Position numbers and translations under genes: made by a program. The notes beneath the pieces were generated by a model that did not search any database, was not told where the DNA came from, and saw only the letters and a list, made by a program, of their open reading frames with translations. Of a stretch of 64,000 nucleotides of DNA, positions 31,430 to 54,370 are shown one piece after another. Source of the DNA: Promethearchaeota archaeon. Lineage in GTDB: Archaea > Asgardarchaeota > Lokiarchaeia > Sigyniarchaeales > SOKP01. How positions within the stretch are numbered: position 1 is the stretch's first letter; each line of letters opens with the position of its first letter. Location of the stretch: NCBI GenBank assembly GCA_030599585.1, contig JAUVNS010000003.1, forward strand, positions 306,491 through 370,490, in the 5' to 3' direction.

Positions 31430-31440
31430 GACAAATTCTC

Positions 31441-32595
31441 CTAATTGGCTCCGACAAACGGATTACTATATTTTAGTATAACTTCAGCTACTTCAGGTCT
31501 CATAACATCTGCCGTTGGTGGATTTCCAGCAAGAAGAGCTTCTCGAATTTTTGTTCCTTTAAAAAAGTCGTGGAGTTCAGGAGGGTGAGGACAGATTTTA
31601 TCGTTTACAATTGAATTACACTTCTTACAACGCGAAAAAGATCGAAAGAATAACGGCTCTATCCCTAAATCTGGAAACATATCAAAAATTTTATGGGCGT
31701 CATATGGCCCGTAAAAATCTCCCACTCCAGCGTGGTCTCTTCCTATAATTATATGATCGCAACCAAAATTTTTTCTTGCAATTGCGTGGAAAATAGCTTC
31801 TTTTGGACCAGCATATCGCATTTCTGTTTCAAAAGTGCTTAAAACAACGCGATTTTCAGGATAATAGTTTTTAATCAACGCCTTATAAGCATTAATTATC
31901 ACTTCGTCTAAAAAGTCCCCTGCTTTTTTCCTACCGATCACAGGGTTTATGAAAAGCCCATCAACAAAAGTTAAACCCGCCTTCTGGACATATTCGTGTC
32001 CTAAATGAGGAGGATTTCTCGTTTGAAAAGCTACAACGCGATCCCAATTTTTTGCTTTAAACAGAACGCGCGTTTCTATTGGTTTTAAATCTAGTTCAGG
32101 AAAAATTGGATTAATTTTGTTAATGAGGAATATATCTCCCCCTATTAATTTTTCTTTTTGGTCGAAAACTCTTTTAACTCCTGGATGAGTTTTATCTAAT
32201 GTGCCATATACTTTTTCTGCGAAGTTTTTTTTATTATAACTATAAATATCTTTGATGTTGAACAAAGCAATCGGGTTATTAGAAAAGTCGGTTAAAATTA
32301 CGGAATCATCCTCTTTTAGGTTCGATACCTCGCTTTCAGAGACATCAAGCACAATCGGAAATGGCCATGCGATCTCGTTTTCTAAATACATCTGATCCAG
32401 AACATTTAACATATCGTTTTCGGTCATGAACCCTTCTAAAGGGCTAAAAACTCCAAAAGCGATGTTTTTAATAACTTTCAAAGTTTCCGAATCGGTCTTT
32501 ATTTTTTCAAACTCGTCAATTTGGGCTAAAATTTTCTGCTTTTCGCTTTCAGGTAGTTCTTTATTAATCAAACTACCCCCATGTGGTTCTATCAT
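31441..32595 (-). CDS. sat: Sulfate adenylyltransferase (ATP sulfurylase)
   Basis: PHGG, FSPLEGFM, FQTRNPPHLGHE, MRYAGPKEA, GRDHAG, MRPEV. Confidence 0.96.
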   Translation of the reverse strand: MIEPHGGSLINKELPESEKQKILAQIDEFEKIKTDSETLKVIKNIAFGVFSPLEGFMTENDMLNVLDQMYLENEIAWPFPIVLDVSESEVSNLKEDDSVILTDFSNNPIALFNIKDIYSYNKKNFAEKVYGTLDKTHPGVKRVFDQKEKLIGGDIFLINKINPIFPELDLKPIETRVLFKAKNWDRVVAFQTRNPPHLGHEYVQKAGLTFVDGLFINPVIGRKKAGDFLDEVIINAYKALIKNYYPENRVVLSTFETEMRYAGPKEAIFHAIARKNFGCDHIIIGRDHAGVGDFYGPYDAHKIFDMFPDLGIEPLFFRSFSRCKKCNSIVNDKICPHPPELHDFFKGTKIREALLAGNPPTADVMRPEVAEVILKYSNPFVGAN

Positions 32596-33074: not shown

Positions 33075-36000
33075 TTAATAATTTGCATAATACACCGTTA
33101 AATTACCAAATTTGTACAATTGGTTCTTGTAGAATAATGGTATTAACTCGCTATAGATATCTATAAACTCTTCAGCCTCTTTCTTATATTCTGTATTCTC
33201 TTTTGAAAGAATTAAGTATCTAATGTCTTTTTTTCTCAAATATTCAAATATTTTTAAATAATTAAACAAACAATATTCAATTTTAAAATCTGGATTCCAA
33301 GTCGCCTTTAAATCGTCTACCAATATTCTGTAATCAAAATGAGGTGATGAGGTTCCCATAGATAAAAATCCAATATCGGATACATTATTTAGGAAGGCGT
33401 AATAACCAAATTCAGTTTGATTTATTACTAATTTCCAATGAAATTGATTTAATCCAGAATAATTACTATCCGTGCATTCAAAATAAAATTTCAATTTATA
33501 CCAAACATTGTTGGTAATCTCTGAAATTTTTTCAAAAGTACTACCGTTAAAATAATAAAACCCTCCATTTTTTATTTGTAAAGAAAAACCAAGAGCAGAT
33601 TGATATGAAGAAAAATTTAACCAAACACTATTACTCTTATTGGATGTTTGTATATAGAACTCAATAGCACCATTATTTTGATAAGAAATAAATTTGAACT
33701 GAACCTCGGCTCTTCCATTAGGATTTTGATCTACAAACTCTAATATATTTTTATGATTAAATATTTCCTCAATCAATTTGATAGAGCAATTGGAAGTTGT
33801 CTTTGATATTACATCTGGACACTCCAAATATTGCATACCACGCTCCATTTCGGAATGGAGTCGATAGGTACCTCGTCGAGTGATATCTCTTATGCGTGCT
33901 ACTAAGATTTTTCGGTCACATAAGAAATTCGAATCTCGGGGGGTATTTTGAGTTACCCAATTAATAACATGAGCTTCTTCGTCGTTTAAAATGCCATCAT
34001 AATTATACAATTTAACACTAGCCATAATTGTGTTAGAAAATGAGAAGACCATTATTATTGATATCAAAATCGCAATTGGAAATGATTTTAAAATTTTATA
34101 CGGAATTTTAAAATTCCGAGAATTATACAAGTTAATAATTTTAATTAATCCAATTGAAGCAAAAATAGAGAGAGGGATAATAGTATAGTGCCATATTCTA
34201 TTAAACCAATATTTCATAATAAAATAATCTTGAGTAGGTAAATTAGCTAGATTTATAAAAGAATACTTAACATAATAGTAGAAAAATAAACTGAAAGCAA
34301 TTCCCATTAGTAATAAAAGCCAACTAAACAATATATAGAACAATTTTCTCCTTTTTTTATAACAGAAATACATCATAAAAATCCCAAAAATGCCTATAAA
34401 ACCTAAATTATAAAAGAAAACATGGAGAACATACGTGAAATTACTTAATCCTCTAATAGTTCTTATTAAATTAAGAAGAATTTCCAAAACTAAAAAGCCT
34501 AAGAAGATTAGAGAACTCAGAAAAAAAAAAAATTTTGCATTACTTTTAGAATTCTTATTTCTTCTTCTAGCTAAGTTGCCAAATTTTAATCTAATTAAGT
34601 AAAATAAAAAGTTGAGAAAAAGAAATCCTAATAAGATTGAATAACATAAACAAGAATTAATAATTAAACTATTTTCATAATTTTTATCTATAAGATACAT
34701 AGGTTCATTTAAGAATTTGAAGAACTGGCCAACAATTTTCCAACTGAATAATTTATTTCCTATGATATCAAAAAATATAAAGAAAATTGTTAGGAATGAA
34801 ATAAAAATAAGATAAGTTTTAAGAAAATGGATGTTTCGCCTATTAACTACTAAAAGGATAAAAATTAATAATAGAGCAGGAATTACCGGAAGATAATATA
34901 TCATTAAACTTTGAATTAAAAAAAAAGCTGCTAATGCGATTAAGAGTAATTTTTCAATTTTTTGCTTTAAATTCTTAATGTGTGTATCATTTCTTTTTTT
35001 AATTAAGATAAGAAAAAGAGCTATAGAAACGGTAAATAATATATTTGCAAAACTTTTATATCGAAATACCAAAAATGCGTCGTAAGTGAACAGAGATGTA
35101 AATTTTTCTTCGATTTGTGGATTAATAAAATAAAATAAGTAAGAGAATGTAACAGCAAAAATAGCCGATAGAATGGCATAAATCTTTTTGAAGTCAATTA
35201 ATAATGATCTCATTAATAAATATAGAGATGTAATTGACAAATATATGAAAGGAAACAACATGACACTCATATTAACTGCAGGAATTCCACCTAATGTGCT
35301 AATACTATATGTTATATAACCCCAATATGGTGAATACCAATAAAAATAATCTCTTAGCGTCGTATCTTGGCGTCCGACAAAATCAGAGAAATCCATTATT
35401 CTATAGAAATCTGTATCATAAAGGTATTTTGCATTCAAATGCATGTTAATTGTAATAATTATTATGCTAATTGCTAAAAACAATATCAGGAGTGAACTTC
35501 TTGATAAAATTACCTTAGCATTATCATGAAATATTATCTTTTTTCGATATATTTGAAGAATTAGGCTCAAGGAGTATGAAATTAGGATGAAGAAAAATAA
35601 CATTATAGAAAAATACATTCTTTGTAATCCAAGTTGATCCAAGATTAAAGTTAGACTTCCAAGCACAGCAAATGATATTACGGGGTAAAAAACTAATTTA
35701 ACTAAAATAGGGTCAACACCAAACCTTTCGTGAATAGTATTATTCGGAAGGAATATTTTAAAAATACATGATCCTAAAACAAAACTACATCCAATTAAAA
35801 ATACAATCGCCCTAAATATATTAAGAAGGGAAATTCGACTCCATTCTATAATCATTTCAGAATTTGGAACTGGAGGGATAAAAAATGTTATAACCATTAA
35901 AATTATTAATATGAAATTTATTAAATCCTCATTTATGACTCTAAAATTTAATGAAATTCCAGTGTCTTCAAATTTTTTCATGTTTATAAAGAAATAGAAT

Positions 36001-36164
36001 ACTCCAATTATAAAAAGGGCAAAACCGATCATTGATAAAATTGGAACTTCATAATTGAATGGAGATAATATCACATTTATGAGAAAAAGAAAGTAGAGAA
36101 CGATAAATGTAATTATAAAGGTAGGTATAAAGAATCTTTTATCGATCGTCAAAACCCTTCTCAA
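33075..36164 (-). CDS. Large multi-pass membrane protein, GT-C-like, with an inserted ConA/LamG-like beta domain
   Basis: Many TM segments, a YDTDFY acidic loop, C-terminal 'INWVTQNTP.DS.F..D ... IRYLIL ... LTVY', interrupted by a beta-rich segment (IEFYIQT...WYKLKFYFEC). Confidence 0.55.
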   Translation of the reverse strand: MRRVLTIDKRFFIPTFIITFIVLYFLFLINVILSPFNYEVPILSMIGFALFIIGVFYFFINMKKFEDTGISLNFRVINEDLINFILIILMVITFFIPPVPNSEMIIEWSRISLLNIFRAIVFLIGCSFVLGSCIFKIFLPNNTIHERFGVDPILVKLVFYPVISFAVLGSLTLILDQLGLQRMYFSIMLFFFILISYSLSLILQIYRKKIIFHDNAKVILSRSSLLILFLAISIIIITINMHLNAKYLYDTDFYRIMDFSDFVGRQDTTLRDYFYWYSPYWGYITYSISTLGGIPAVNMSVMLFPFIYLSITSLYLLMRSLLIDFKKIYAILSAIFAVTFSYLFYFINPQIEEKFTSLFTYDAFLVFRYKSFANILFTVSIALFLILIKKRNDTHIKNLKQKIEKLLLIALAAFFLIQSLMIYYLPVIPALLLIFILLVVNRRNIHFLKTYLIFISFLTIFFIFFDIIGNKLFSWKIVGQFFKFLNEPMYLIDKNYENSLIINSCLCYSILLGFLFLNFLFYLIRLKFGNLARRRNKNSKSNAKFFFFLSSLIFLGFLVLEILLNLIRTIRGLSNFTYVLHVFFYNLGFIGIFGIFMMYFCYKKRRKLFYILFSWLLLLMGIAFSLFFYYYVKYSFINLANLPTQDYFIMKYWFNRIWHYTIIPLSIFASIGLIKIINLYNSRNFKIPYKILKSFPIAILISIIMVFSFSNTIMASVKLYNYDGILNDEEAHVINWVTQNTPRDSNFLCDRKILVARIRDITRRGTYRLHSEMERGMQYLECPDVISKTTSNCSIKLIEEIFNHKNILEFVDQNPNGRAEVQFKFISYQNNGAIEFYIQTSNKSNSVWLNFSSYQSALGFSLQIKNGGFYYFNGSTFEKISEITNNVWYKLKFYFECTDSNYSGLNQFHWKLVINQTEFGYYAFLNNVSDIGFLSMGTSSPHFDYRILVDDLKATWNPDFKIEYCLFNYLKIFEYLRKKDIRYLILSKENTEYKKEAEEFIDIYSELIPLFYKNQLYKFGNLTVYYANY

Positions 36165-36212: not shown

Positions 36213-36752
36213 TTAATGAAACTTTCCTTCTTTTTTGAGTGTTTCATAATGTTCCTTATTTCTGTATTTGAATACCTTTGCTGGATGACCTCCTGCAATC
36301 CCATATTTTGGAATATCACTTACAACTACGCTCCCTGCTTGAATAATTGCGCCCTCTCCTATTGTTATTCCGGGAAGAATAGTTGATCGAGACCCTATCC
36401 AGACATTATCACCGATAATTATATCTTTATAAACATAACCCTTATAAGGGAGCGCTTCTCCTTCATAGTTATGGTTTCGAGTAATAAAGAGAATATCATC
36501 TCCAGAATGGAAATTATCCCCAATTACAACCTTTCCATCGGCTCTTATCACTAGACCGTTGAAACTACAATTTTTCCCTAAGTGCGTCCTTTTATTTAAC
36601 TTAGTATTAGAATATGGTCTTATTCTAGGTTTTGACTTATAAGAAGCGATTATTTTCAAATTTCTTTTTAATACCCATTTAGGATCAATATATTTTAATA
36701 GGGAATCTCTTAATATTTTAAGACTTCTAAATTTTTTTCTCGTCAATTTCAA
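36213..36752 (-). CDS. Hexapeptide-repeat (LbH) sugar O-acetyltransferase
   Basis: NHNY, IIGDNVWIG, ILPGITIGEGAII.AGSVV..DIP, GGHPAKV. Confidence 0.9.
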   Translation of the reverse strand: MKLTRKKFRSLKILRDSLLKYIDPKWVLKRNLKIIASYKSKPRIRPYSNTKLNKRTHLGKNCSFNGLVIRADGKVVIGDNFHSGDDILFITRNHNYEGEALPYKGYVYKDIIIGDNVWIGSRSTILPGITIGEGAIIQAGSVVVSDIPKYGIAGGHPAKVFKYRNKEHYETLKKEGKFH

Positions 36753-36806: not shown

Positions 36807-37688
36807 TTAATCCCAATTAAAATCTCTTTCTAAATACTCATACAACTCTTTATTATGGGGTTCAAAAAATTCTTTTAAATTTTGCATCGTTTTCTCATTC
36901 ATCTTTTTACCTTTTGCGTCGGAATGATACTTACGATACTCTATATGGCTCCATTTTGGTAAATTGAGAAAATTAATAACATTTTTTACTACTTCTTTAG
37001 GGTTATCAAATAAGTCCTCACTTCTTATTATTAAAATCTGCTCTTTATTGAAATATTTAAACCAAATCCTTATTTGTTTTAAGTAAATACTCCTAGTTAA
37101 ATAAGCAAAGGCAGGAAAACGTGAGCTCCTATAAAATTCATCTTTCAAAATCTTATTATACTCATCTTTTGTTCTCTCATCTTCTTTTTTTATGGCTTCT
37201 TCAAAAGTAAATTTTTCTCTACCACTTTTTAAAGTATGAAAATATTGTGAAAAAGATCGGTTAACAGGATTTCTTAATAACATAATAATTTTTATGTGAG
37301 GAAGTTGTGAATAAACTCTTTTAGCAACATGAGGGTGGAGTATGTAATAGGGTGATGCTTCGCCAGTAACAAAATCACGATGGCAGAATTTCTCCATAAA
37401 ATACTTATAAATTTTAGTAGGGAAATACGACCTATACCAAACTAAACCTTTTTTAAAATTTGAATCAAAGTATCTAACCTCTTTTCTAAAAGAAGGTATT
37501 ATTGAAGGATGACTTACTAGATAATTGTATAAGGATGTTGTTCCTGCTTTTTGGGCTCCAACTATTAGAAAATCTGGTAAAACCCTTATTGGACCAGTTA
37601 TCAATCGGATTGAATGAACAAAAACTTCGATAGTTCCGTTTATTATATTATGAATTTTTTTTAAAATTTTCATACCTAGCTTTACCAA
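36807..37688 (-). CDS. PAPS-dependent sulfotransferase (heparan-sulfate 3-O/N-sulfotransferase-like family)
   Basis: PDFLIVGAQKAGTTSL 5'-PSB loop, KEVRYFD, GEASPYY, LRNPVNRSFSQY 3'-PB motif, FFEPHN..L..YL. Confidence 0.9.
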   Translation of the reverse strand: MVKLGMKILKKIHNIINGTIEVFVHSIRLITGPIRVLPDFLIVGAQKAGTTSLYNYLVSHPSIIPSFRKEVRYFDSNFKKGLVWYRSYFPTKIYKYFMEKFCHRDFVTGEASPYYILHPHVAKRVYSQLPHIKIIMLLRNPVNRSFSQYFHTLKSGREKFTFEEAIKKEDERTKDEYNKILKDEFYRSSRFPAFAYLTRSIYLKQIRIWFKYFNKEQILIIRSEDLFDNPKEVVKNVINFLNLPKWSHIEYRKYHSDAKGKKMNEKTMQNLKEFFEPHNKELYEYLERDFNWD

Positions 37689-38018: not shown

Positions 38019-39377
38019 CTATAATTTAATATTCTTCATAACTTTATTAATTAATTTTAATTCTTTGTTCTCATTATAAATTTCCTTTTCCATATCGATG
38101 TGCTCCAATAAAATTCTTTCAAAATTTAACACCAAATCAATGTTTTCTTCATATAAATTCTCAGTTTCCTTAGGATCTTCTCTTAAATTGAATAATTTCT
38201 TAATTTTCTTGTCGAAATCTAAAATTAATTTCCAATTTTCAGTTCTATAAGATATTAGTCTTGAACCTTCTTCGAGTGAAAGTTTCACTTTTCCATTTTT
38301 AGCTAAAGACTCAGTAATAACCCCTTCACATAAATGACCATTAGATTTGTTCTTCAATAAAGGGTAGAAGCTTCTTCCTTTAAATTGAGTTTTTTCATCA
38401 ACTTTTAAATATTCAAGAATAGTTGGGGCTAGATCGATTAGTGATACTAGATTATCCAATTTTACTCCTTCAGGTAATTCTGGACCCTTTATTAATAAGG
38501 GCACATGGATTAATTCTTCGTACAACTTTGCTTGGTGACTGAAACCTCCGTGTTCTCTGAATTCTTCCCCATGGTCAGCTGTTATGATAATTAATGAATT
38601 ATCGTATAGATTCATTTCCTTTAATTTAGAAAAGAGTTTACCTATTTCGTTATCTACATACTTAACTGTTCCACTATAGATACTAATTATTTCTTGTATT
38701 TTTTTTTTCGATATATTTGAGGGATTTTTGCTGAGGATTCCTTCTAATTTAGCTAATTTCCGAAAACTTACAGTTCTATATTCTTCTGGGGGTAAAAAGG
38801 GATGATGTGTGTCCATATAATGGATCCATAAAAAAAACTTGTTTTCTACTTGCTCTAACCAATCAGTTGCTTTCTTATTAATACTGTGAGCTGGTTTATA
38901 AGGAATTTTTATTTTATATTTGGAATTTAAAACACTTAGAATTTTTTTAGCTAAATTTTTCAATATTTTATATCTTTTTATAAAATTCCGTAGAGATCCT
39001 GATTTTTTATAATCAACATTTTCATCTGAAATACTATCATAAAAATAATCAAAAAACTTATCATAATTATAAACTTTACTTAAATAAGGGTTTGAATGAA
39101 ATCCTGCCGTAATATAACCTTTTCTCTTTAAAATTTCAGTTATTGAAATCCTTGACGAAGAAATTTTAGGAAAATTCTCATCCATTAAAGCATATGTAGA
39201 TGTAAAAATCGATGGAAAAGAGAAAGGAGTTGATGGGCCATTGACAATAGCTTGAGATAAAGATATACCCTTTTCTGCAAATTTATCTAAATTTGGAGTT
39301 AGGTTTTCGCTACTACCTAAGCATCCTAAGAAATCAGCTCTTAAACAATCTATTGTTAGTAATATCACATTTGTCAT
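38019..39377 (-). CDS. Sulfatase-like hydrolase/transferase (AlkP superfamily)
   Basis: LTIDCLRAD, GPSTPFSF, WIHYMDTHHPF, TADHGEEF.EHG, LYEELIHVPL, DP.E..NL. Confidence 0.88.
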   Translation of the reverse strand: MTNVILLTIDCLRADFLGCLGSSENLTPNLDKFAEKGISLSQAIVNGPSTPFSFPSIFTSTYALMDENFPKISSSRISITEILKRKGYITAGFHSNPYLSKVYNYDKFFDYFYDSISDENVDYKKSGSLRNFIKRYKILKNLAKKILSVLNSKYKIKIPYKPAHSINKKATDWLEQVENKFFLWIHYMDTHHPFLPPEEYRTVSFRKLAKLEGILSKNPSNISKKKIQEIISIYSGTVKYVDNEIGKLFSKLKEMNLYDNSLIIITADHGEEFREHGGFSHQAKLYEELIHVPLLIKGPELPEGVKLDNLVSLIDLAPTILEYLKVDEKTQFKGRSFYPLLKNKSNGHLCEGVITESLAKNGKVKLSLEEGSRLISYRTENWKLILDFDKKIKKLFNLREDPKETENLYEENIDLVLNFERILLEHIDMEKEIYNENKELKLINKVMKNIKL

Positions 39378-39389
39378 AATACATAAATC

Positions 39390-40481
39390 TCAATTATGGA
39401 AGTTTTTATTTACAAATTTGATTTTATCATATGTGATAATATCATCTTCTTTTAAATCTTCTAAAGCTGTTCCTCCAACAACATAATCAAGCATAAAGGG
39501 GGGAATTCCTGTACCTGGTCTTTTGAAAGTTATCATTTCATCAGTTATTATATCTCCTTTTGAGATATCCTGATTAGCAATTAAACTCCTTCTAGCATGA
39601 GTCCTCGAATTCATTTCGCAAGGAAGTGGTTGTTTATGATACTTTCCACTGATTTTTTGAACAAATCTTATCTTTACTATTAGATTTTGCAAATCTAATG
39701 GGTCCATCGAATGATAATGATCATTTCCTGGAAGACTTTTATCAAGTGTAAAATGTTTTTCTATAATTTTAGCACCGTAAGTATAAGCGATAGTAGGAAC
39801 TAGCATTGAATCATCAGGTTTAGTATGATCAGAAAAACCTAATATGTATTCAGGGTAAATATTACCAAGATGTTTAATCATGTTAAGATTCGCATCTTTG
39901 TATTTTGTAGGGTAATCTAATATACAATGGAATAAACATATTTCATTATTCCCCGTAGATTTGATCGTATTTATCGCCCTTTCAATCTCTCCTAGTGTTG
40001 CAGCTCCAGTTGATAAGAATATGGGTTTTTTTTTATTTGCAACATATTCAATAAAAGGAGTATTTGTTAAATCTGAAGAGGATATTTTAAATATTGGCAT
40101 CAAATCATCTAAGTAATCTGCAGCACTAAAATCAAATGGTGTAGATAGAAACATTAAGTTCTTTTTAGTGCAAAATTCTGAAAGTTCCTTATACTCTTCA
40201 AAGCCAAATTTATCATATTTCTTAAATAATTTGTATTGAGAATCAGTAGGTTCTTCTTTTAAATCCCAATATGCTGGAGCATGTTTGGACACGATCTTCT
40301 CGGTTTTATAAGTTTGGAATTTTACAGCATCTGCCCCCTTTTCTTTTACTTCTTTAATCATCTTTTTAGCAGCATTTAATAAAGTAAGGTTTTCTTTATC
40401 AGCGATATCATAGTAATTCACGCCTATATCTGCTATTATGAAAAATCCATTTTCCTCTATTGTTTGCTTATAATCTTTCAC
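39390..40481 (-). CDS. neuB: Nonulosonic acid synthase (NeuB/SpsE/PseI family) with SAF domain
   Basis: ADAVKFQ, FLSTPFD, FKISSSD, LSTGA, GFSDHT, IEKHFTLD, GNDH, KRPGTG. Confidence 0.9.
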   Translation of the reverse strand: MKDYKQTIEENGFFIIADIGVNYYDIADKENLTLLNAAKKMIKEVKEKGADAVKFQTYKTEKIVSKHAPAYWDLKEEPTDSQYKLFKKYDKFGFEEYKELSEFCTKKNLMFLSTPFDFSAADYLDDLMPIFKISSSDLTNTPFIEYVANKKKPIFLSTGAATLGEIERAINTIKSTGNNEICLFHCILDYPTKYKDANLNMIKHLGNIYPEYILGFSDHTKPDDSMLVPTIAYTYGAKIIEKHFTLDKSLPGNDHYHSMDPLDLQNLIVKIRFVQKISGKYHKQPLPCEMNSRTHARRSLIANQDISKGDIITDEMITFKRPGTGIPPFMLDYVVGGTALEDLKEDDIITYDKIKFVNKNFHN

Positions 40482-42148
40482 TTCTTTACCATCTCTTCAT
40501 ATTTTTCATATTCACTAAAAATTAATCCTAATACGTTACTAATACCAGACCGTAGATTATTCTCCAACATTAATATGTTATTCTTTTTACGTAAATCATA
40601 ATCATTTATTAATCTAATAAGAGCACTTTTAATTTCATCATCTGGTATTTTTGTACCTAATCCAACATTAATTATCCCATTCTCTTCGCTTGCGAAAGTA
40701 TGGAGTAAACCTCTTTCATTTTCTACTAATACAATTGTAGGAACTCCAATAGAGGCTAATTCATATACAGTTCTTCCTGCAGCAGTTAACGCAATATCTG
40801 CCTCATACATATATTTACTTATATGGTTGATATGTTGCTTTACATTCACTTCGAAACTATAGTCTTTAGATTTTTGCTTTAATTTTTCAGCATTTTTATA
40901 TCCTAGACCCAATATAGCATTTACTTTTAGATCCTTAATCTTTAAACTCTCAAGAATATCCAATATCTTCTCAGTATAATTATTTGGATCAGTTCCACCA
41001 TAACTGATAATGATATTTGTAACTTCTTTAGATATTCTTCTTCTACCCACAAGATGAAATTCTTCTCTTAAAATATAGTAATCCTTACCCCAGTAGTGAT
41101 TTTCAAGAAAATTTTTCCTTACATACAAAGCGTTAATAACTAAATCTGCAACTTTAGCACCTTCTCCTAAATCCTCAAAGTTTATAATGAAAATTCCTTT
41201 TTCTTTTAAAAATTTTATGTATTCTATATCTGTGTCCAAAATGTCATTAATAACTATAAAGGGTTTGAATTCTGATATGATTTTATCAAATTCTCCTTTT
41301 TTATCAAAAGTAGCTAGCTTAAAATTGTTTTCCTTAATGATTTTAGTACCGAGGTCATATTCTTGCTTAGTAACAAATAATAACTCGTGATCTATCAGTT
41401 GAGTAGCAAGTGCTAAAGTTCTATATATATGTCCCAAACCAATTTTGTTATACCCATCAACTCTTATTAGAATTCTTTTACGTTTGAGAAATTTTTCTGC
41501 CATCCACCAATCTATATGGTTTTTTATAAGAATATTTTCAGGAAGTGTGAGTTCTATTAATTTTACATTTTTGGTGATTAAATTTTGATGTTGTAGCAGA
41601 GTTTCCTTTTTAGAAATAATAATTTCACTAATTTCTTGTAATTTGCGTCTGTGATTTCGATCTTTTTCTTTTTGATATAATTTTGTACCAAAACCTTTAG
41701 AATCTTCAATCCATAACTTTAGATGAGGTTCTTCATTATATTGAACCGATAATGCCGAATCTTTTTGTGAAGAAATTAACTCCTCAATGGATTTATCGAT
41801 AGTTTCTGTTTTTATTAACGGGCAGTTTGGAAACAGGATCACAAGATAATCGTATTGTTTTTGCTCCTTTACTTCAATCTCCTTAAGTAAAACTGTAGAC
41901 AGAATATTCAAATCGTAGTTTTTTTCTAAAATTAATTCTTTTTCAGTAATAACTTTTAATGCGTTGATCTCCGTAATGTGAGCAACATTTTCATCATCAG
42001 TATAATAATAAATGTCATCTATATACTTAGATTTCTTTGCGATATCATTCGCGTATAATATTAACGGTTTTTTTACTAAGAACCGTGAAAACATTTTGGG
42101 TATTGCTTCATTTCTTATTAAAACGGGTATTATTGCTAATATATTCAT
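40478..42148 (-). CDS. Fusion of a CMP-nonulosonate synthetase-like domain and a PseG/SpsG-like UDP-sugar hydrolase
   Basis: N-terminal cytidylyltransferase (AIIP, KPLI, P..PL). C-terminal RVDG...IGLGHIYR, SYGGTDP, AAGRTVYELA..GVP. Confidence 0.85.
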   Translation of the reverse strand: MNILAIIPVLIRNEAIPKMFSRFLVKKPLILYANDIAKKSKYIDDIYYYTDDENVAHITEINALKVITEKELILEKNYDLNILSTVLLKEIEVKEQKQYDYLVILFPNCPLIKTETIDKSIEELISSQKDSALSVQYNEEPHLKLWIEDSKGFGTKLYQKEKDRNHRRKLQEISEIIISKKETLLQHQNLITKNVKLIELTLPENILIKNHIDWWMAEKFLKRKRILIRVDGYNKIGLGHIYRTLALATQLIDHELLFVTKQEYDLGTKIIKENNFKLATFDKKGEFDKIISEFKPFIVINDILDTDIEYIKFLKEKGIFIINFEDLGEGAKVADLVINALYVRKNFLENHYWGKDYYILREEFHLVGRRRISKEVTNIIISYGGTDPNNYTEKILDILESLKIKDLKVNAILGLGYKNAEKLKQKSKDYSFEVNVKQHINHISKYMYEADIALTAAGRTVYELASIGVPTIVLVENERGLLHTFASEENGIINVGLGTKIPDDEIKSALIRLINDYDLRKKNNILMLENNLRSGISNVLGLIFSEYEKYEEMVKK

Positions 42149-42286
42149 TTTATATTTTCAAATCTAGGCTTAAATTTTTATTATTTAACTCCATTAAGGT
42201 ATTCCCTTCTCTTAAAAATTCAAAATAACCTTTAAATCTTAGCAAAAAGGCTTCTATGATGTTTCAGATGCCTTAATATTTCGATT

Positions 42287-43348
42287 TTAACCATCTATAT
42301 GATATTTTTTGAACGATTGATCCTTATCTATTTCTTGTTTAAGCTTCTTATTTAGTAGATATTCATATTCTTTTTGTTCATAATCACTTTTCTCCAGAGT
42401 TACTTTATAACTAACATTATCACTTTTTAGTGTATCTCCTTTTTTTAGATCCCTACTAGCAACTAATTGTTTTTCTCTGTTCTTGTATTTTAACTCCACT
42501 TCATTCAAAATCGATAGGTTGTTGTCACCTAAAATGGTAATTAAACTATCCAATTCATTTCTTAGCACAATTAAATCTCGATGGCCCACCGCTGCTTCAT
42601 AATCCGTCCTTTGTAACCCTTTCTTTAAAACTATATGCTTTTCAAATAACCTTGCCCCACAAAGGTATGCATATTTAACAATTTCATTCCCCCTCTTAAT
42701 TTCAGAAAAGGAGGTATGATCTGCATATCCTAAAACGTTCTTATAATTCTCTTTCAAACTATGTAATTTTGATAGATTCAATTTTTCATAATCAGTCGGA
42801 AAACTTTGGAATCCGTACATCAAAATTAAATTTGCTTTTATTGCAGATTTTAAGTTATCTATTTCTTCCATTGTAAAATTAATATCATCTAGAGTACGAC
42901 CACCAACTCCAAGAATTATCACAGAGTTTAAATCAACTAATTTTTCTATATATGGAACTTGATTGAAACATATAGAATGAACCTCTATTGCATCTATAGA
43001 ATCAATGTTCTCTCGTACTAGATCCAAGCTTTTCAAATCGATAGGCAAAATTACTACTTCTAAATTCTTGGATTTAGCATATTTTATTACATTAATCCAA
43101 GATTTTTTATCAATATACCATTTATGGAAATTTTGAAAAATCTCCGTATTTTCAGTATATGAATCATCAATATCTAATAATATCTGAAATTTCACTCCAT
43201 CTGCTTTTCCCTCAACGGCGGTATCGATTTGATTTTTTAGATAGTCGATGCTGCCTTCGTGAGAAAAAGCAGTTTCAGCTAGAACGAAGTAATTTTTATT
43301 TCCTTCCTTTATTAATTCGTTTAGTTTTATCCTTTTCATAAAAATCAT
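42287..43348 (-). CDS. Second, divergent NeuB-family synthase (start may be ATG at 43339)
   Basis: AETAFSHEG, ADGVKFQ, FQSFPT, GYADHT, FEKH, C-terminal SAF-like domain. Confidence 0.8.
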   Translation of the reverse strand: MIFMKRIKLNELIKEGNKNYFVLAETAFSHEGSIDYLKNQIDTAVEGKADGVKFQILLDIDDSYTENTEIFQNFHKWYIDKKSWINVIKYAKSKNLEVVILPIDLKSLDLVRENIDSIDAIEVHSICFNQVPYIEKLVDLNSVIILGVGGRTLDDINFTMEEIDNLKSAIKANLILMYGFQSFPTDYEKLNLSKLHSLKENYKNVLGYADHTSFSEIKRGNEIVKYAYLCGARLFEKHIVLKKGLQRTDYEAAVGHRDLIVLRNELDSLITILGDNNLSILNEVELKYKNREKQLVASRDLKKGDTLKSDNVSYKVTLEKSDYEQKEYEYLLNKKLKQEIDKDQSFKKYHIDG

Positions 43349-44150
43349 CTTCCAATTTTACAATATTACATGTTTTATACTTTTCTTCTAATTCTTCTAA
43401 ATATTCCCCGTAGATTTTTTTCGTATTGTTAGGAAAATTAATCTTAATATTACGACTGATTTCTAAATAAGGAATAGGGGTGGTTTTATTTAGATTTAAT
43501 ATATCATCTAAATATATCACTTTTTTTTCTTTTAGATGCTTCATAATAAAAAGAGTCCTTTCAAAATCCTCTGGTGTGTCCACTGTAAGACTAAACAATG
43601 GATTCTTCATTATTGAAGGTGGATATAGGATCAATTTCCTTAAATTATTTTCGCTAAAGAAGATATAATAAGTCAGATATTCTGTCTGATCAAGATCTAA
43701 AGAGGAATATATTTTTTTTAATCCAGAAACAGAAAAAATCTCAGATGTAACTCCTAATGGAAGTGTGGTTGTTCTTGTATAATCAGCTTTGTGTTTATTG
43801 TGAAGTTCTATCATTTTATCAGTAAATATCTCATCACAAAATATGTTGTCACCTGTAATTCTTATGACATTATCTGCATTTTCAAATGCTGCAACATTCA
43901 GCATTCGATCAATAACCACTTCTTTACTTCCTGCATACCCATAGATACCATTTTCTTTTGCGATTGAAAGTAGTATTTCATCATCAGGATCAACAGATGT
44001 ACATAAATATATTTTATCAATATTATGAGCTCTTTTTACTCTATCTATTAAATGTTCAATCAGCTTTTTATTACCTATATCTCTTAGTACTTTTTTAGGT
44101 AATCTTCTTGAATTGGTCCTGGCAATTATACAACCAATAGTTTTTGGCAT
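43296..44150 (-). CDS. SpsF-type cytidylyltransferase
   Basis: IIARTNSRRLPKKVL, RITGDN, P.G...E, LTVDTPEDF. Confidence 0.88.
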   Translation of the reverse strand: MPKTIGCIIARTNSRRLPKKVLRDIGNKKLIEHLIDRVKRAHNIDKIYLCTSVDPDDEILLSIAKENGIYGYAGSKEVVIDRMLNVAAFENADNVIRITGDNIFCDEIFTDKMIELHNKHKADYTRTTTLPLGVTSEIFSVSGLKKIYSSLDLDQTEYLTYYIFFSENNLRKLILYPPSIMKNPLFSLTVDTPEDFERTLFIMKHLKEKKVIYLDDILNLNKTTPIPYLEISRNIKINFPNNTKKIYGEYLEELEEKYKTCNIVKLEDDFYEKDKTKRINKGRK

Positions 44151-44334
44151 GATTATTTCAAAACAACACTATTAGTATAACATTTATACTCGTAATGTTT
44201 AATTTTTTATAGATTTCATTGAAAGTAATTTCTATGTCATACAATATTTGGAAAACTTTGATTCAAGATTTTGGGCAATCACCATCTAGCCCGTTTAGGA
44301 TTAATTCTTCTAATCGTTATTGTTCATCTAGTTT

Positions 44335-44581
44335 TTCATGAAACTATCCTTTTTTGAGTTTTTGGTAATGTTCTTTATTCTGGTATTTGAAGACCTTTAC
44401 GGGATATCCTCCAGCAATCTCTATTTTGGTATATCAAGAAAAATGACCTTATTTTTGTATCTGACTTATAAGAAGCGATGAGTTTCATATTTCTTTTTAA
44501 CACCGATTAAGGAACAATATATTTCAATGTTGAATTCTTTGTTATTCTGAGATTTCTGAATCTTTTCTTCCTCAGTATTAA
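44335..44581 (-). pseudogene. Decayed, internally deleted paralog of the acetyltransferase at 36213-36752
   Basis: 5' part ILRKKRFRNLRITKNSTLKYIVP*SVLKRNMKLIASYKS matches the N-terminus. 3' part IAGGYPVKVFKYQNKEHYQKLKKG*FH matches the C-terminus. Start TTG has become TTA, there are in-frame stops, and the hexapeptide core is missing. Confidence 0.85.
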
Positions 44582-44760
44582 TCAATCCCACTACTCTGAA
44601 AGACCATCTAACTATTGAATTATACATTTAGGATTATTATAGCGAATTTATATTTTTTTCCAATTATTCATACTAATCCGTAGTTTATAGAATTAAATCT
44701 AAATAATTTCTCTTATTATACCTAAAGTTAAAATATTTTTTATAAAACATATTTAGTATT

Positions 44761-44870
44761 TAATCTTGAAAAATTAACCATCTCGATTAATTAAAGAATT
44801 TAATAAAGCATAAATTATCCTTTTTATTATAAATTCATAGTCTAATAAGGAATTTCTCGCTTTAAACCAT
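44761..44870 (+). repeat. Copy 2 of the ~110-bp direct repeat; upstream region of the 620-aa gene
   Basis: Matches 37790-37900 and runs into the ATG at 44869. Confidence 0.85.
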
Positions 44871-46731
44871 GAAAGTATTGATACTTTACAACTTTTTTAA
44901 TTATCAAAATAAATTTCTGCCAAAGATTATTAAGAAATTACTCAAATATTATAATTCTTCAAAATTGAATTCAATTATATCTCAAATTAGAAAAGATTTC
45001 TCATATAACGTAGATATAACTGTTCTTACCCCAATAAATGAGGAATTGAAACTAAAATCAAAGATTTCACTTAAATTCTTGCCAAAATTAAGGGTTGAGA
45101 TCGATCGTTTAATTTTTAGAGGAATCAAGGATGATGTAGTGCAAAAAACTAAGCAAACGTTAAAAACTCTTTATTCTAACTTATTAGATTTACAAATTTA
45201 CTCTCTTAAGGGGACATTTTTACCTAAAATATTTGAATTCGAACTCTCATTATTTCTTAACGAATTTTTTGGGAAATATGAGTTAATAAAAAAAATAATT
45301 CAAGAAAGAGAATACGATGAAATTTATTTATGTAATATTAATAATAGGTCATTAGATTTTTTCAAAAAGATCAATTCAGATATGAAGTTATTCAATGACA
45401 ATTTTTTCTTAAAAAATGCCAATCTCTTAAACGGGATAAGTACTATCCACTACCTTTTGATAACTTTGGGCCTAAATTTCAAAAGGATTTTATTCAAGAA
45501 GCAATTGCAAAGTAATTACATGCTAGATAATAAGAAAAAGAATATTCTTTTTTTCGCAAATTCAGATAACCAAATAAAAAGTATAATGCCAATTTATACT
45601 AATTTACAAAGTGAAAAGCTAGTAAACCCCGTAAAATATAGCAGTGAAACCTTTACATCAACAAGAAGCCTAACTCAGATTATTAAATACATACTCCAAG
45701 TTAGAAGGATACTCAAATGTCATAAAAGAATGATTGCAAGAAATTTAAACTACGATTCAATAAATTTAGGGAAATTTTTAGAAATCTATTACTTAAAGGG
45801 GCACTTAGTTGATTTAATAAGAAGCTATAATGTGTTACAAAACTTTATCGAATTCAATAAAAAATTTCATTCATCATTAGTGATAATCCCTAACGATTAT
45901 ACGGGCACCATGAGATTAATTACGAATTTTTGTAAACTAAAGAAAATTCCGACATTATTTATCCCTCACGCCGCAATCCCAATAATAGAGGAGATGGTTA
46001 CAAAAAATGATATTAAATATTTTGCGCTAGGAGGGAACTACGACAAAGAATATTATATCCAAAAAGGAGTAGATAGTGAAAATATAGAAATAACAGGAGT
46101 GCCAAGATATGAATACTTTTATAAAAATGAATTTATCAAATTATCAGAAGTTCGAGATATGTTCGATGGAAGAAAACATAACTTTACTCAGCATAAGTTA
46201 ACAGTTCTATTAACAACTAATCCGATCGATGATGAGTCAAATGAAAAAATTATTAAAACAGTCCTAAAATCACTCAAGCAATTGAAAATAGAAAACCAAT
46301 TAATAATAAAACTACACCCTCGCGAAAACGGTCTTATCCACAGAAAAATCTGTAGAGAATTGAAACTAAGTCCAATAATAATCAAAAATTATCAAATCTT
46401 AAATGTTATTAAATCATGCGATATATTAATCTCACAAAAATCCACAACCATTTTAGAGGCTATGATCGTCGGAACTCCAGTTATTTGTTTAGATGTAGTT
46501 AATAAATCATTTAGAGAAACTAGTAAATATCTATTTTTAGATGAAAAATATGTTTATATGGCATACAATCAAGATGAATTAACTGAACATATAAGAAATT
46601 TGATTACAAACAAGGAAAGATTAAAAGATTATATCAAAAAATTAAAAACAAATGCAGAAAAGTTTATCTTTTACGATATAAATAATCCCCCAATAAAGAA
46701 AATAAGTGAACTAATTGCTTATCTTGATTAA
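44869..46731 (+). CDS. GT-B-fold protein (capsule-synthesis / CDP-glycerol transferase-like); candidate nonulosonate transferase
   Basis: FIPHA, ITGVPRYE, IKLHPRE, STTILEAMIVGTPVI; divergent from the NeuB cassette. Confidence 0.6.
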   Translation: MKVLILYNFFNYQNKFLPKIIKKLLKYYNSSKLNSIISQIRKDFSYNVDITVLTPINEELKLKSKISLKFLPKLRVEIDRLIFRGIKDDVVQKTKQTLKTLYSNLLDLQIYSLKGTFLPKIFEFELSLFLNEFFGKYELIKKIIQEREYDEIYLCNINNRSLDFFKKINSDMKLFNDNFFLKNANLLNGISTIHYLLITLGLNFKRILFKKQLQSNYMLDNKKKNILFFANSDNQIKSIMPIYTNLQSEKLVNPVKYSSETFTSTRSLTQIIKYILQVRRILKCHKRMIARNLNYDSINLGKFLEIYYLKGHLVDLIRSYNVLQNFIEFNKKFHSSLVIIPNDYTGTMRLITNFCKLKKIPTLFIPHAAIPIIEEMVTKNDIKYFALGGNYDKEYYIQKGVDSENIEITGVPRYEYFYKNEFIKLSEVRDMFDGRKHNFTQHKLTVLLTTNPIDDESNEKIIKTVLKSLKQLKIENQLIIKLHPRENGLIHRKICRELKLSPIIIKNYQILNVIKSCDILISQKSTTILEAMIVGTPVICLDVVNKSFRETSKYLFLDEKYVYMAYNQDELTEHIRNLITNKERLKDYIKKLKTNAEKFIFYDINNPPIKKISELIAYLD

Positions 46732-53557: not shown

Positions 53558-54370
53558 CTAAATCTCGTATCCTAAATTCTTCATCGTTTCTCCACAAATT
53601 TTATTAAATGATTCTAATTTTTTAGGATCCCAATCATTCCAGTGTGGAATTGTGTGTTGTTTGGTAATATTTTTAGGAGATTTTACTTCCTTTTCCCATA
53701 TATCTTTAGATATTTCTAAATTCAAAGGCACGAGTAAATTTTTGTTGAAATATTCGTAATCTGAAATAAGTTTCTCAAAATAAATAATTGTATCAATATT
53801 TTCATGCAGGTACCTATTTTCTACATCCCAATACCAGCATAATTTTTCAAAACGACTCATACTAACCCATTTATCGTACCAAGGGCTATCTTTAGTCGGT
53901 CTAATGCTTTTTGTGTTCGGATCTTCGCTCGTCATAGTCTTTCTTGCCGTCATCGAACGTATAACATCTCTTCCGTCTCTAACTAAATGGAATAAACTTG
54001 CATTAGGGAATGATTTTCTTATAGCTTTACAATGGCGCCTAATAACACTATTAACTTCACCATATATCTCTTTATTTTTAAGTTTAGCCCTGAGATAAAT
54101 TTCTTTCCTTCTAAATGTCTTAAAATACTTATACGCTTTTTTCTCACTAAAGAATGCTTCAGAATAGGCTCTAAAGTCGCTCCTTACGGGTTCATGAACA
54201 ATGTAAGCATTTTTTGATTTATTTAATAGCTGAGAAAAGAAATTAGTTCCTGAACGACCAATAGCTAAAATAAAGAATATGCTATTTTCCTTTATCCAAC
54301 CATTAATTTTCTTATTAGAATACCAAAACTTCAATTTGGTTTTAATCATTTTTCTAGAAGGATACATCAT
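53558..54370 (-). CDS. PAPS-dependent sulfotransferase (Sulfotransfer_3 / Stf-like)
   Basis: GRSGT, HEP, VRDGRDVIRS, FEKL, terminal MKNLGY. Confidence 0.88.
   Translation of the reverse strand: MMYPSRKMIKTKLKFWYSNKKINGWIKENSIFFILAIGRSGTNFFSQLLNKSKNAYIVHEPVRSDFRAYSEAFFSEKKAYKYFKTFRRKEIYLRAKLKNKEIYGEVNSVIRRHCKAIRKSFPNASLFHLVRDGRDVIRSMTARKTMTSEDPNTKSIRPTKDSPWYDKWVSMSRFEKLCWYWDVENRYLHENIDTIIYFEKLISDYEYFNKNLLVPLNLEISKDIWEKEVKSPKNITKQHTIPHWNDWDPKKLESFNKICGETMKNLGYEI

Follow-up and report, generated by a model that had tools for sequence, protein, structure and literature searches.

The window analyzed here is a 64,000-nt stretch of contig JAUVNS010000003.1 from the 4.85-Mb, 52-contig genome of a Promethearchaeota archaeon. 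Between positions 39390 and 44150, its minus strand carries two genes of the NeuB family of nonulosonate synthases (NeuB1 and NeuB2), the gene of an SpsF/KdsB-type cytidylyltransferase (CT2), and a gene in which a cytidylyltransferase domain is fused to a PseG-like domain. Nonulosonic acids, i.e., sialic-acid-like sugars, decorate flagella, capsules, S-layers, and spores. Pathways for their synthesis are usually predicted from a single NeuB homolog and, to our knowledge, the surface glycans of Asgard archaea are almost unexplored. The first-pass annotation of this locus had proposed two nonulosonic acid pathways in tandem, each with a cytidylyltransferase of its own. We arrive, with roughly even confidence, at a different reading in which the cluster encodes one island-borne module for a cytidine monophosphate (CMP)-activated nonulosonate, composed of hydrolase, NeuB1, and CT2, with NeuB2 as an accessory protein. 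The object of interest is the fixed partnership of the NeuB2 clade with an SpsF-type cytidylyltransferase and a canonical NeuB rather than a pair of pathways.

The predicted synthesis module

On the minus strand, the genes follow the order CT2, NeuB2, 556-aa fusion, NeuB1, and a sulfatase-family gene (Table 1). Family matches of the cluster genes have E-values from 1e-23 to 1e-80, which excludes chance. None of the four genes is disrupted, and neighboring genes are tightly spaced or overlap: NeuB1 has a GTG start and a 4-nt overlap with the stop of the fusion gene, and NeuB2 overlaps the end of CT2 by 44–53 nt. Homologs begin at the fourth codon of NeuB2, so that its true start probably lies at ~43339. 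The gene content listed in the first-pass annotation (two NeuB genes, CT2, the cytidylyltransferase::PseG-like fusion, and a GT-B gene with an HP motif) was recovered in full, as were all motifs that it had singled out, i.e., ADIGVNYYD (residues 17–25) in NeuB1 and AETAFSHEG (24–32), EVHS (122–125), and GVGG (147–150) in NeuB2. The closest relatives of the cluster proteins carry the source labels Hermodarchaeota, Promethearchaeota, Odinarchaeota, Thorarchaeota, and Lokiarchaeota, and relatives at 60–83% identity on other archaeal contigs share the gene arrangement, among them metagenome locus L063.

NeuB1 scores below the cut-offs of two equivalog models, NeuB_NnaB (319.9 bits; cut-off 399.65) and PseI (253 bits; cut-off 340.25). 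Canonical NeuB genes of legionaminic acid (Leg)-type loci likewise stay under the equivalog cut-offs (350 and 364 bits), so this test is a strict one. The best solved relative of NeuB1 is Bacillus subtilis SpsE (1vli, 173 bits). We compared active sites by column correspondence in a 42-row alignment, using the numbering of Neisseria meningitidis NeuB. NeuB1 retains Lys53, Gln55, Thr110, Phe112, Lys129, Ser132, Ser154, Tyr186, Ser213, His215, Glu234, His236, Asp247, and Arg314, and its sole differences at the compared sites are Glu25→Asp, His30→Tyr, Glu134→Asp, and Asn184→Leu. The earlier view that both synthases are deviant therefore holds for NeuB2, which differs at many positions (see below), but applies only mildly to NeuB1. 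Glu25, Glu134, and Glu234 have been named as potentially catalytic, and Glu134→Asp is reported to be common in archaeal and eukaryotic synthases (PMC8208679). At positions 25/134/234, NeuB1 has Asp/Asp/Glu, i.e., conservative replacements that loosely preserve the three acids. Three related archaeal genomes share its Asn-Tyr motif variant, and in these a NeuB1 of 50% identity likewise adjoins a cytidylyltransferase::PseG-like gene. From these conserved residues we infer that NeuB1 is a near-canonical nonulosonate synthase.

The C-terminal domain of the fusion protein stays under the TIGR03590 cut-off of 153.55 bits both in the protein search (136 bits) and in the genome scan (137.7 bits) and is thus PseG/SpsG-like without being certified as PseG. 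Many of the 678 homologs of the fusion, which are ~555 aa long, are named PseG/SpsG or UDP-2,4-diacetamido-2,4,6-trideoxy-beta-L-altropyranose hydrolase by their sources, and the domain is presumed to be a nucleoside diphosphate (NDP)-sugar hydrolase that frees the hexose for NeuB1. The N-terminal domain was compared across 15 rows picked from 120 listed of the 678 homologs. In all six bacterial or methanogen rows, the nucleotide-binding loop is IPARGGSKGIPRKN, whereas the window fusion has IPVLIRNEAIPKMF; the loop has diverged in eight of the nine archaeal-clade rows, the window included, and the ninth row starts after it. The motifs downstream of the loop are canonical in the six bacterial or methanogen rows and replaced in all nine archaeal-clade rows, and Pfam CTP_transf_3 finds no match in the fusion protein. 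The fused cytidylyltransferase domain thus reads as degenerate in the archaeal clade of the window.

CT2 has kept what the fused domain has lost. Its nucleotide-binding loop is preserved, and residues A10, R11, S14, R16, L17, K20, D101, D191, and D195 are invariant in 16 aligned relatives; the best solved relative is 6oew, annotated as “Cytidylyltransferase” (72 bits). CT2 proteins that neighbor NeuB2 also share a conserved C-terminal extension of ~60 aa. The whole genome contains two NeuB matches, one good PseG-like match, and a single CTP_transf_3 match, which is CT2. Since the CTP-binding loop of the fused domain is replaced, CT2 would be the only intact cytidylyltransferase in the genome and is presumed to be the CMP-nonulosonate synthetase. 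The idea that each synthase has its own cytidylyltransferase does not survive these findings.

Genes for the usual precursors are missing. The first-pass annotation had seen no PseB/C or LegB/C genes in the window, and by family cut-offs this extends to the whole genome: the best Polysacc_synt_2 match reaches 93.5 bits without a PseB-type dehydratase among the matches, the best LegB match 181.5 bits (cut-off 475), and the best LegC match 242 bits (cut-off 420). NeuC is absent genome-wide as well, both Epimerase_2 genes being of the WecB type (345 and 224 bits on wecB). One of them lies in the window and is a possible source of UDP-ManNAc for the module. With two WecB genes but no NeuC, PseB/C, or LegB/C, the likeliest substrate of the hydrolase would be UDP-ManNAc or UDP-GlcNAc (uridine diphosphate-linked N-acetylmannosamine or N-acetylglucosamine), and the product is more likely to be neuraminic- or Kdn (ketodeoxynononic acid)-like than a 5,7-diamino sugar. 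Three DegT aminotransferases, all on other contigs, leave the latter open. In the proposed order of events, the PseG/SpsG-like half of the fusion would hydrolyze the NDP-hexose, NeuB1 would condense the free sugar with phosphoenolpyruvate (PEP), CT2 would form the CMP-sugar, and a 620-aa GT-B protein with a K-x-H-P motif, a more tentative assignment, may transfer it.

The NeuB2 clade and its genomic partners

NeuB2 falls far below the same equivalog cut-offs (128.1 bits for NeuB_NnaB and 94.2 bits for PseI). Its AlphaFold2 (AF2) model (predicted local distance difference test score, pLDDT, 90.3) has N. meningitidis NeuB and Campylobacter jejuni PseI as top folds (E 3e-24 to 2e-23). Relatives number 201 at E <= 0.001, range from 76% to 38% identity among the 120 matches listed, and occur in archaea and bacteria, e.g., Atribacteria, Lachnospiraceae, and Planctomycetota. 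Across 18 diverse sequences of this clade, which are 37–73% identical to the window protein, 39 columns are invariant and mean column identity is 53%. The clade keeps Glu25, Lys53, Gln55, Ser132 (mostly), His215, Glu234, His236, and Asp247, and it changes Lys129→Glu, Gly131→His, Glu134→Cys/Asn/Ser/Ala, Thr110→Leu/Ala/Met, Gly245→Arg, Ser154→Gly (Ala in one row), Asn184→Gln, Tyr186→Phe/Tyr, and Ser213→Ala/Thr. The window protein itself shows Lys129→Glu, Gly131→His, Glu134→Cys, Thr110→Leu, Ser154→Gly, Ser213→Ala, Gly245→Arg, and Arg314→Val, and in alignment to N. meningitidis NeuB its Asn74 loop is deleted.

These changes travel together. Glu129, His131, Arg245, and a non-acidic residue 134 are combined in 18 of 19 NeuB2-type rows (residue 134 being Cys in 13, Asn in two, Ser in two, and Ala in one of these 18), while all 19 canonical rows, NeuB1 included, keep Lys129, Asp/Glu134, Ser213, and Thr/Ser110. 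The metal-binding pair His215 and His236 is present in NeuB1, NeuB2, and all 42 rows. At the catalytic acids 25/134/234, NeuB2 has Glu/Cys/Glu, so that one of the three is lost, and at contact positions Lys129/Thr110/Ser213/Ser154 (the last of which we take to be a catalytic-site contact from the 1xuz structure) it has Glu/Leu/Ala/Gly, while NeuB1 keeps all four. Lys129, Thr110, Asn74, Ser213, and Arg314 have been described as key residues of the catalytic site (PMC6795526). This pattern has the appearance of a selected, rebuilt pocket and not of decay. Since the clade signature removes both Lys129 and Glu134, standard PEP condensation by NeuB2 is doubtful. In the literature searchable without subscription we found no description of a NeuB paralog with this signature, and the accessible parts of PMC8208679, PMC7371886, PMC5109656, PMC13656337, and bioRxiv 10.1101/2022.03.25.485807 do not describe one.

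The genomic company of NeuB2-like genes was surveyed in 24 genome loci, obtained by a NeuB2-derived pattern scan of species-representative genomes and spanning many bacterial and archaeal phyla. A CT2-like gene is present in 21 of them and is adjacent to the NeuB2-like gene in most (2 kb away in L039); the three exceptions are L031, L023 with a contig of only 1.4 kb, and L032, whose match lies at the edge of the contig. Within a few kb, 20 of the 24 loci also contain a canonical NeuB, which is split into two reading frames in L020, L030, and L043 and missing in L023, L031, L038 (3.2 kb), and L040. A Flavobacteriales contig (L022) even carries two complete NeuB2/CT2/canonical NeuB triads side by side. 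This recurrence of the three genes as a unit across phyla, like the doubled triad, also speaks against the two-pathway proposal. The same pattern is seen in 41 metagenome loci, where the gene order of L063 mirrors the window; a clear triad is seen in five of the seven metagenome signature loci that exceed 10 kb, while L077 combines NeuB2 and CT2 with a NeuB1-like gene left unclassified by the pattern, and L079 contains only NeuB2. Cultured carriers of NeuB2 include Acetobacterium carbinolicum DSM 2925 (L036), Lutibacter sp. B2 (L033), and Halorhodospira neutriphila DSM 15116 (L041). Among 301 sampled genomes of the phylum, seven match NeuB2 at E <= 1e-30, none of them among the 27 of the same genus; two of the six other matching genomes have the signature and four are NeuB1-like. 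The island is therefore rare.

Contexts were typed by Pfam/NCBIfam scans of 10 loci and by BLAST for all 24. Leg-type contexts contain LegB, LegC, an acetyltransferase, and PtmE/LegX (in L021, LegB scores 519 bits and LegC 537 bits), pseudaminic acid (Pse)-type contexts with PseB, PseC, and PseG are found in L020, L041, and L042, and minimal PseG-only contexts like that of the window in the first set of L022 and in L032. None of the 10 loci scanned with Pfam has a second cytidylyltransferase. Directly upstream of the canonical NeuB in Leg-type clusters, we observed a ~290-aa protein with faint GT-A (GT2-like) similarity (L021:6299-7186, L027:6321-7202, L029:5033-5887, L036:7025-8971, and others), which is fused to NeuB in L034 and L036 (Acetobacterium and a Tissierellales metagenome-assembled genome). 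No NeuC/LegG gene was found in the genome loci of Leg-type clusters that carry it, and it is a candidate for a non-orthologous replacement of the LegG hydrolase step. These NeuC-less loci had also given rise to the idea that NeuB2 stands in for the 2-epimerase half of NeuC/LegG, which we dropped as the main reading since L024/L074, L076, and L077 contain NeuC-like genes alongside signature NeuB2 and since NeuB2 is found in Pse-type clusters, where this step is not needed. Among other unusual fusions, the Acidobacteriota Leg cluster L040 encodes a 588-aa SpsF-type cytidylyltransferase::Gfo/Idh/MocA oxidoreductase protein (L040:3018-4784) that recalls the ElaB plus ElaA/ElaC set proposed for 8-epi-legionaminic acid (PMC13656337). 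The 748-aa metagenome protein P0122 combines a canonical NeuB and SAF protein (285 bits), a CBS domain, and a xylose-isomerase-like TIM barrel (79 bits) in one fused chain.

A quick maximum-likelihood tree of the 42 rows, which included no characterized reference sequences, separates the NeuB2 clade (19 rows; Shimodaira–Hasegawa-like approximate likelihood ratio test, SH-aLRT, 99) from the canonical clade (19 rows, SH-aLRT 100). Four intermediate NeuBs branch between the two; they retain Lys129 and Asp134 and have Gln184, Phe186, and in most cases Ala213 in common with NeuB2. By these shared residues and the tree, the NeuB2 clade appears to be derived from synthases that travel with SpsF-type cytidylyltransferases. 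In the history that we envisage, an ancestral pair of synthase and SpsF-type cytidylyltransferase would have existed first, a canonical NeuB arriving with its hydrolase would have taken over synthesis in one lineage, and the old synthase would then have been remodeled into NeuB2. An assignment of NeuB1 to the Leg or Pse type by the same tree was tried and dropped, as NeuB1 groups with L022_3800 (SH-aLRT 99) and falls into neither the Leg-context group (11 rows) nor the Pse-context group (three rows).

Possible roles of NeuB2

NeuB2 is probably an accessory paralog that no longer acts as a PEP-condensing synthase. Its clade has retained the metal site, Glu25, and Glu234, has replaced Lys129 and Glu134, and has gained Arg247 and His124. 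We conjecture that, where the NeuB1 product passes on to CT2, NeuB2 acts on this product or together with it, e.g., by binding, editing, or epimerizing it before activation. A wider proposal would see in the NeuB2 clade a new enzyme, or else a subunit that is obligatory for ligand handling. With canonical NeuB and the SpsF-type cytidylyltransferase it would form an unrecognized end-module of three proteins for the biosynthesis of sialic-acid-like sugars, and bacteria and archaea would use this module in clusters of the Leg, Pse, and minimal types. In this view, the chemistry might be a metal-dependent epimerization or a retro-aldol editing of the nonulosonate ahead of CMP activation. We offer this proposal tentatively and regard it as possible though somewhat doubtful. 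If true, the NeuB2 step could explain how some stereoisomers without known routes are made. A conserved NeuB2 would imply a further step or subunit in nonulosonic acid pathways, and a NeuB paralog with a rebuilt site next to a cytidylyltransferase in hundreds of clusters of both domains would mean that counts of NeuB genes overestimate the number of pathways.

Several observations weigh against an accessory role. The pocket of NeuB2 is conserved and still looks catalytic (Glu25, His30, Lys53, Gln55, His211, Glu236, His238, and Asp249), and the coupled changes Lys129→Glu and Gly245→Arg could relocate the positive charge and leave PEP binding intact. NeuB2-derived patterns served to find the surveyed loci, which lack phylogenetic independence, and our interpretation of the clade is drawn from sequence. 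Moreover, the intermediate NeuBs adjoin CT2-type genes, sometimes as the sole synthase (as in L040, a full Leg cluster with a NeuC-like gene), and one of them is a cytidylyltransferase–NeuB–cytidylyltransferase fusion (P0121, 916 aa). Since these look like true pairs of synthase and cytidylyltransferase, NeuB2 and CT2 could still be one, too.

In that case, NeuB2 and CT2 would form a second self-contained pair that makes a different, possibly novel CMP-ulosonic acid by PEP condensation in a remodeled pocket, and activation of the NeuB1 product would fall either to the fused domain or likewise to CT2. We consider this rather unlikely. It would fit P0121 and the pairing of CT2-type genes with Lys129-retaining NeuB relatives that are apparent sole synthases (L040, L081, and others), and it would make sense of the retention of the metal histidines, Glu25, Glu234, Lys53, Gln55, and Asp247 in NeuB2, where Arg247 may compensate for Lys129. 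However, Glu134 is lost in all 18 signature rows, none of Lys129, Thr110, Ser154, and Ser213 is retained, and the Asn74 loop is gone. With no second cytidylyltransferase in the 10 scanned loci and a degenerate fused domain in the window, the NeuB1 product would be left without an activating enzyme of its own, and the fact that L022 carries the entire triad twice in tandem speaks for a single product served by all three genes.

NeuB2 could instead be a non-catalytic subunit, either as heterodimer partner of NeuB1 or as a scaffold that docks CT2 for channeling. NeuB enzymes are domain-swapped dimers in which the SAF domain of one chain caps the active site of the other, and Arg314 is lost from many NeuB2 SAF domains (Val/Ile/Met/Trp in 12 of the 18 signature rows). 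Together with the obligate co-occurrence of NeuB2 with both partners and the conserved extension of the neighboring CT2 proteins, this would suit a structural role, but the 39 invariant columns are concentrated at active-site positions, as expected for a working catalytic or ligand-binding site and not for a decayed one, and we hold this alternative to be decidedly unlikely. Finally, the cluster could belong to a decaying and incomplete island that was acquired horizontally without precursor genes and makes no nonulosonate at all. The low GC content (~25–29% vs 31–36% in the flanks), the rarity of signature NeuB2 (two of 300 other sampled genomes of the phylum and none of 27 in the genus), and the lack of PseB/C, LegB/C, and NeuC would all agree with this. 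Yet the four genes are intact and tightly joined, their 60–83%-identical relatives keep the arrangement on other archaeal contigs, and the PseG-like hydrolase with WecB could supply a simple hexose, so that we see this as quite improbable. A single module with NeuB2 as an accessory protein hence remains our preferred reading.

Glycan island, candidate transferase, and known systems

The cluster lies in a region from ~33 to 58 kb of the window with a GC content of 25–29% against 31–36% in the flanks. Its genes for glycosyltransferases, methyltransferases, a MATE-like flippase, sulfotransferases, and synthesis of 3′-phosphoadenosine-5′-phosphosulfate (PAPS) identify it as a surface-glycan island, and the flanking housekeeping genes are archaeal (a 553-aa phenylalanyl-tRNA synthetase beta chain with B3_4/B5 domains and an RNase-PH exosome subunit). 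Features discussed here are collected in Table 1.

Table 1. Coordinates of features in the 64,000-nt window
Feature	Position	Strand	Profile match or remark
NeuB1, 363 aa	39390-40481	-	Pfam NeuB 268 bits, SAF 45.5 bits
Cytidylyltransferase::PseG-like fusion, 556 aa	40478-42148	-	
PseG/SpsG-like GT-B domain, residues ~225-556	40478-41476	-	TIGR03590 PseG 136 bits at 225-475; Glyco_tran_28_C 33 bits
Cytidylyltransferase-like N-terminal domain, ~residues 1-220	41489-42148	-	PseF 44.9 bits at 5-218 (cut-off 205.7)
NeuB2, 353 aa (TIM barrel and SAF)	42287-43348	-	Pfam NeuB 106 bits, SAF 25.6 bits
CT2, SpsF/KdsB-type cytidylyltransferase, 284 aa	43296-44150	-	CTP_transf_3 83.7 bits (cut-off 22.6)
GT-B protein, 620 aa	44869-46731	+	divergent from CT2; KLHP at residues 481-484
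Sulfatase-family (alkaline-phosphatase superfamily) protein	38019-39377	-	Pfam Sulfatase 157.7 bits
Second sulfatase-family protein	57199-58656	+	
Sulfotransferase	36807-37688	-	Sulfotransfer_1 67.9 bits
Hexapeptide acetyltransferase	36213-36752	-	Hexapep 45.3 bits
Non-hydrolyzing UDP-GlcNAc 2-epimerase (WecB type)	20737-21852	-	TIGR00236 wecB 345 bits (cut-off 210); NeuC 94 bits (cut-off 235.9)
PAPS/sulfation genes, including two sulfotransferases and a TauE/SafE-type exporter	29478-32595, 21961-22752, 36807-37688, 53558-54370	-	ATP sulfurylase 284 bits, APS kinase 202 bits
597-aa protein	23132-24925	+	adjoins isoleucyl-tRNA synthetase
1029-aa protein	33075-36164	-	no Pfam family at E <= 0.01
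636-aa protein	8546-10456	+	no Pfam family at E <= 0.01
505-aa protein	13283-14800	+	no Pfam family at E <= 0.01

The sulfatase-family gene starts 12 nt downstream of NeuB1 and is probably co-transcribed with it; a 37%-identical relative is located 6 kb from the NeuB2-like gene of L077. By eye, its product appears to lack the Cys/Ser-x-Pro-x-Arg motif that we take to be the usual sulfatase signature. Like the second sulfatase-family protein of the window it looks cytoplasmic, and both may be transferases or phosphodiesterases rather than sulfatases. Relatives of the sulfotransferase and the acetyltransferase (37% and 66% identity) adjoin the NeuB1/CT2/NeuB2 triad in metagenome locus L073. PAPS supply in the island is complete, with both ATP sulfurylase and adenosine 5′-phosphosulfate (APS) kinase encoded, and together with the sulfotransferases this points to a surface glycan that would be sulfated as well as sialic-acid-like. 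The 597-aa protein, a eukaryote-like signature protein, has weak matches to ubiquitin-conjugating enzyme and RWD families (30 and 23 bits) at residues 428–522. Like the archaeal housekeeping genes and the source labels of the closest relatives, it indicates a host of the Asgard type. A second glycan cluster ~30 kb upstream of the window on the same contig (C34:266001-282000, L103) encodes another WecB-type 2-epimerase, AglJ/PpgS-like dolichyl-phosphate glycosyltransferases, short-chain dehydrogenase/reductase (SDR) enzymes, and GT4 genes.

The 620-aa GT-B protein has 1377 relatives, mostly of similar length (~620 aa), and an alignment of 33 rows shows Gly410, Lys481, His483, Pro484, and Pro537 to be invariant, which includes the K-x-H-P motif. 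Its C-terminal profile matches are weak (TIGR04396 58 bits, cut-off 125; BFO_1060 49 bits, cut-off 200; Capsule_synth 24.6 bits, cut-off 20), Epimerase_2 just reaches its cut-off of 30.6 with 30.8 bits over residues 396–542 only, and the NeuC model gives 15 bits. Its Atlas neighbors are labeled LIC12162, Glyphos_transf, Capsule_synth, or Epimerase_2, the LIC12162 link being seen via these neighbors alone, and a sequence search against solved structures gave only a chance-level match (E 0.1). In the AF2 model (pLDDT 91), the nearest folds are UDP-GlcNAc 2-epimerases (Z 16–18.4, root mean square deviation 3.5–4.5 Å, 307–327 residues aligned over 222–620), followed by ordinary GT-B transferases at Z ~15 (TarL, Z 15.0, 348 residues over 75–618). 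A gene of this type was not found in the 24 NeuB2 genome loci, and L066 has a 27%-identical relative. The earlier proposal that this protein could be the transferase stands as a fair one with regard to the K-x-H-P motif and the resemblance to TagF, KpsC, and LIC12162 but sits uneasily with the epimerases as nearest folds: a CMP-sugar transferase is plausible, and a sugar-nucleotide hydrolase or epimerase is an alternative to be reckoned with.

Among known systems, the 620-aa protein resembles the TagF/TarL, KpsC/KpsS (Capsule_synth), and LIC12162 GT-B proteins in size, in the K-x-H-P motif, and weakly in profiles or features. It differs from these transferases in having UDP-GlcNAc 2-epimerases as its best structural matches. 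With regard to the synthases, N. meningitidis NeuB (1xuu/1xuz) and C. jejuni PseI (8h2c) have the same fold of TIM barrel and SAF domain as NeuB1 and NeuB2, both of which keep His215/His236, Glu25 (Asp in NeuB1), and Glu234 of the former.

The module as a whole resembles the SpsE/SpsF/SpsG system of B. subtilis: NeuB1 corresponds to SpsE, CT2 to SpsF/KdsB, and the C-terminal half of the fusion to SpsG/PseG, with the same order of hydrolase, synthase, and CMP activation. We know of no second NeuB paralog in B. subtilis. SpsE is required for legionaminic acid synthesis in the SpsE/SpsF/SpsG pathway of the spore crust, and the accessible part of that study makes no mention of a NeuB2-type protein (PMC7439481). 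A further difference is that SpsM/SpsC/SpsD build a diamino-trideoxyhexose in B. subtilis, for which this genome has no equivalent over family cut-offs. Many bacterial NeuB2 loci share LegB, LegC, an acetyltransferase, PtmE/LegX, and a canonical NeuB with the seven-gene Leg cassette of LegB, LegC, LegH, LegG, LegI, LegF, and PtmE/LegX (bioRxiv 10.1101/2022.03.25.485807). They differ from it in that CT2 replaces NeuA/LegF, the ~290-aa GT-A-like protein usually replaces NeuC/LegG, and NeuB2 is added, while the window lacks LegB, LegC, and PtmE.

Cytidylyltransferase::PseG fusions, which are widespread in bacteria and methanogens (~555 aa) and to which Helicobacter pylori HP0326 presumably belongs, have the same two-domain architecture and length as the window fusion. 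Compared with these, the loop and motifs of the cytidylyltransferase domain are replaced in the clade of the window, and this coincides with the presence of CT2. The window fusion would thus be a case of a cytidylyltransferase domain that decays after its displacement by a non-orthologous enzyme.

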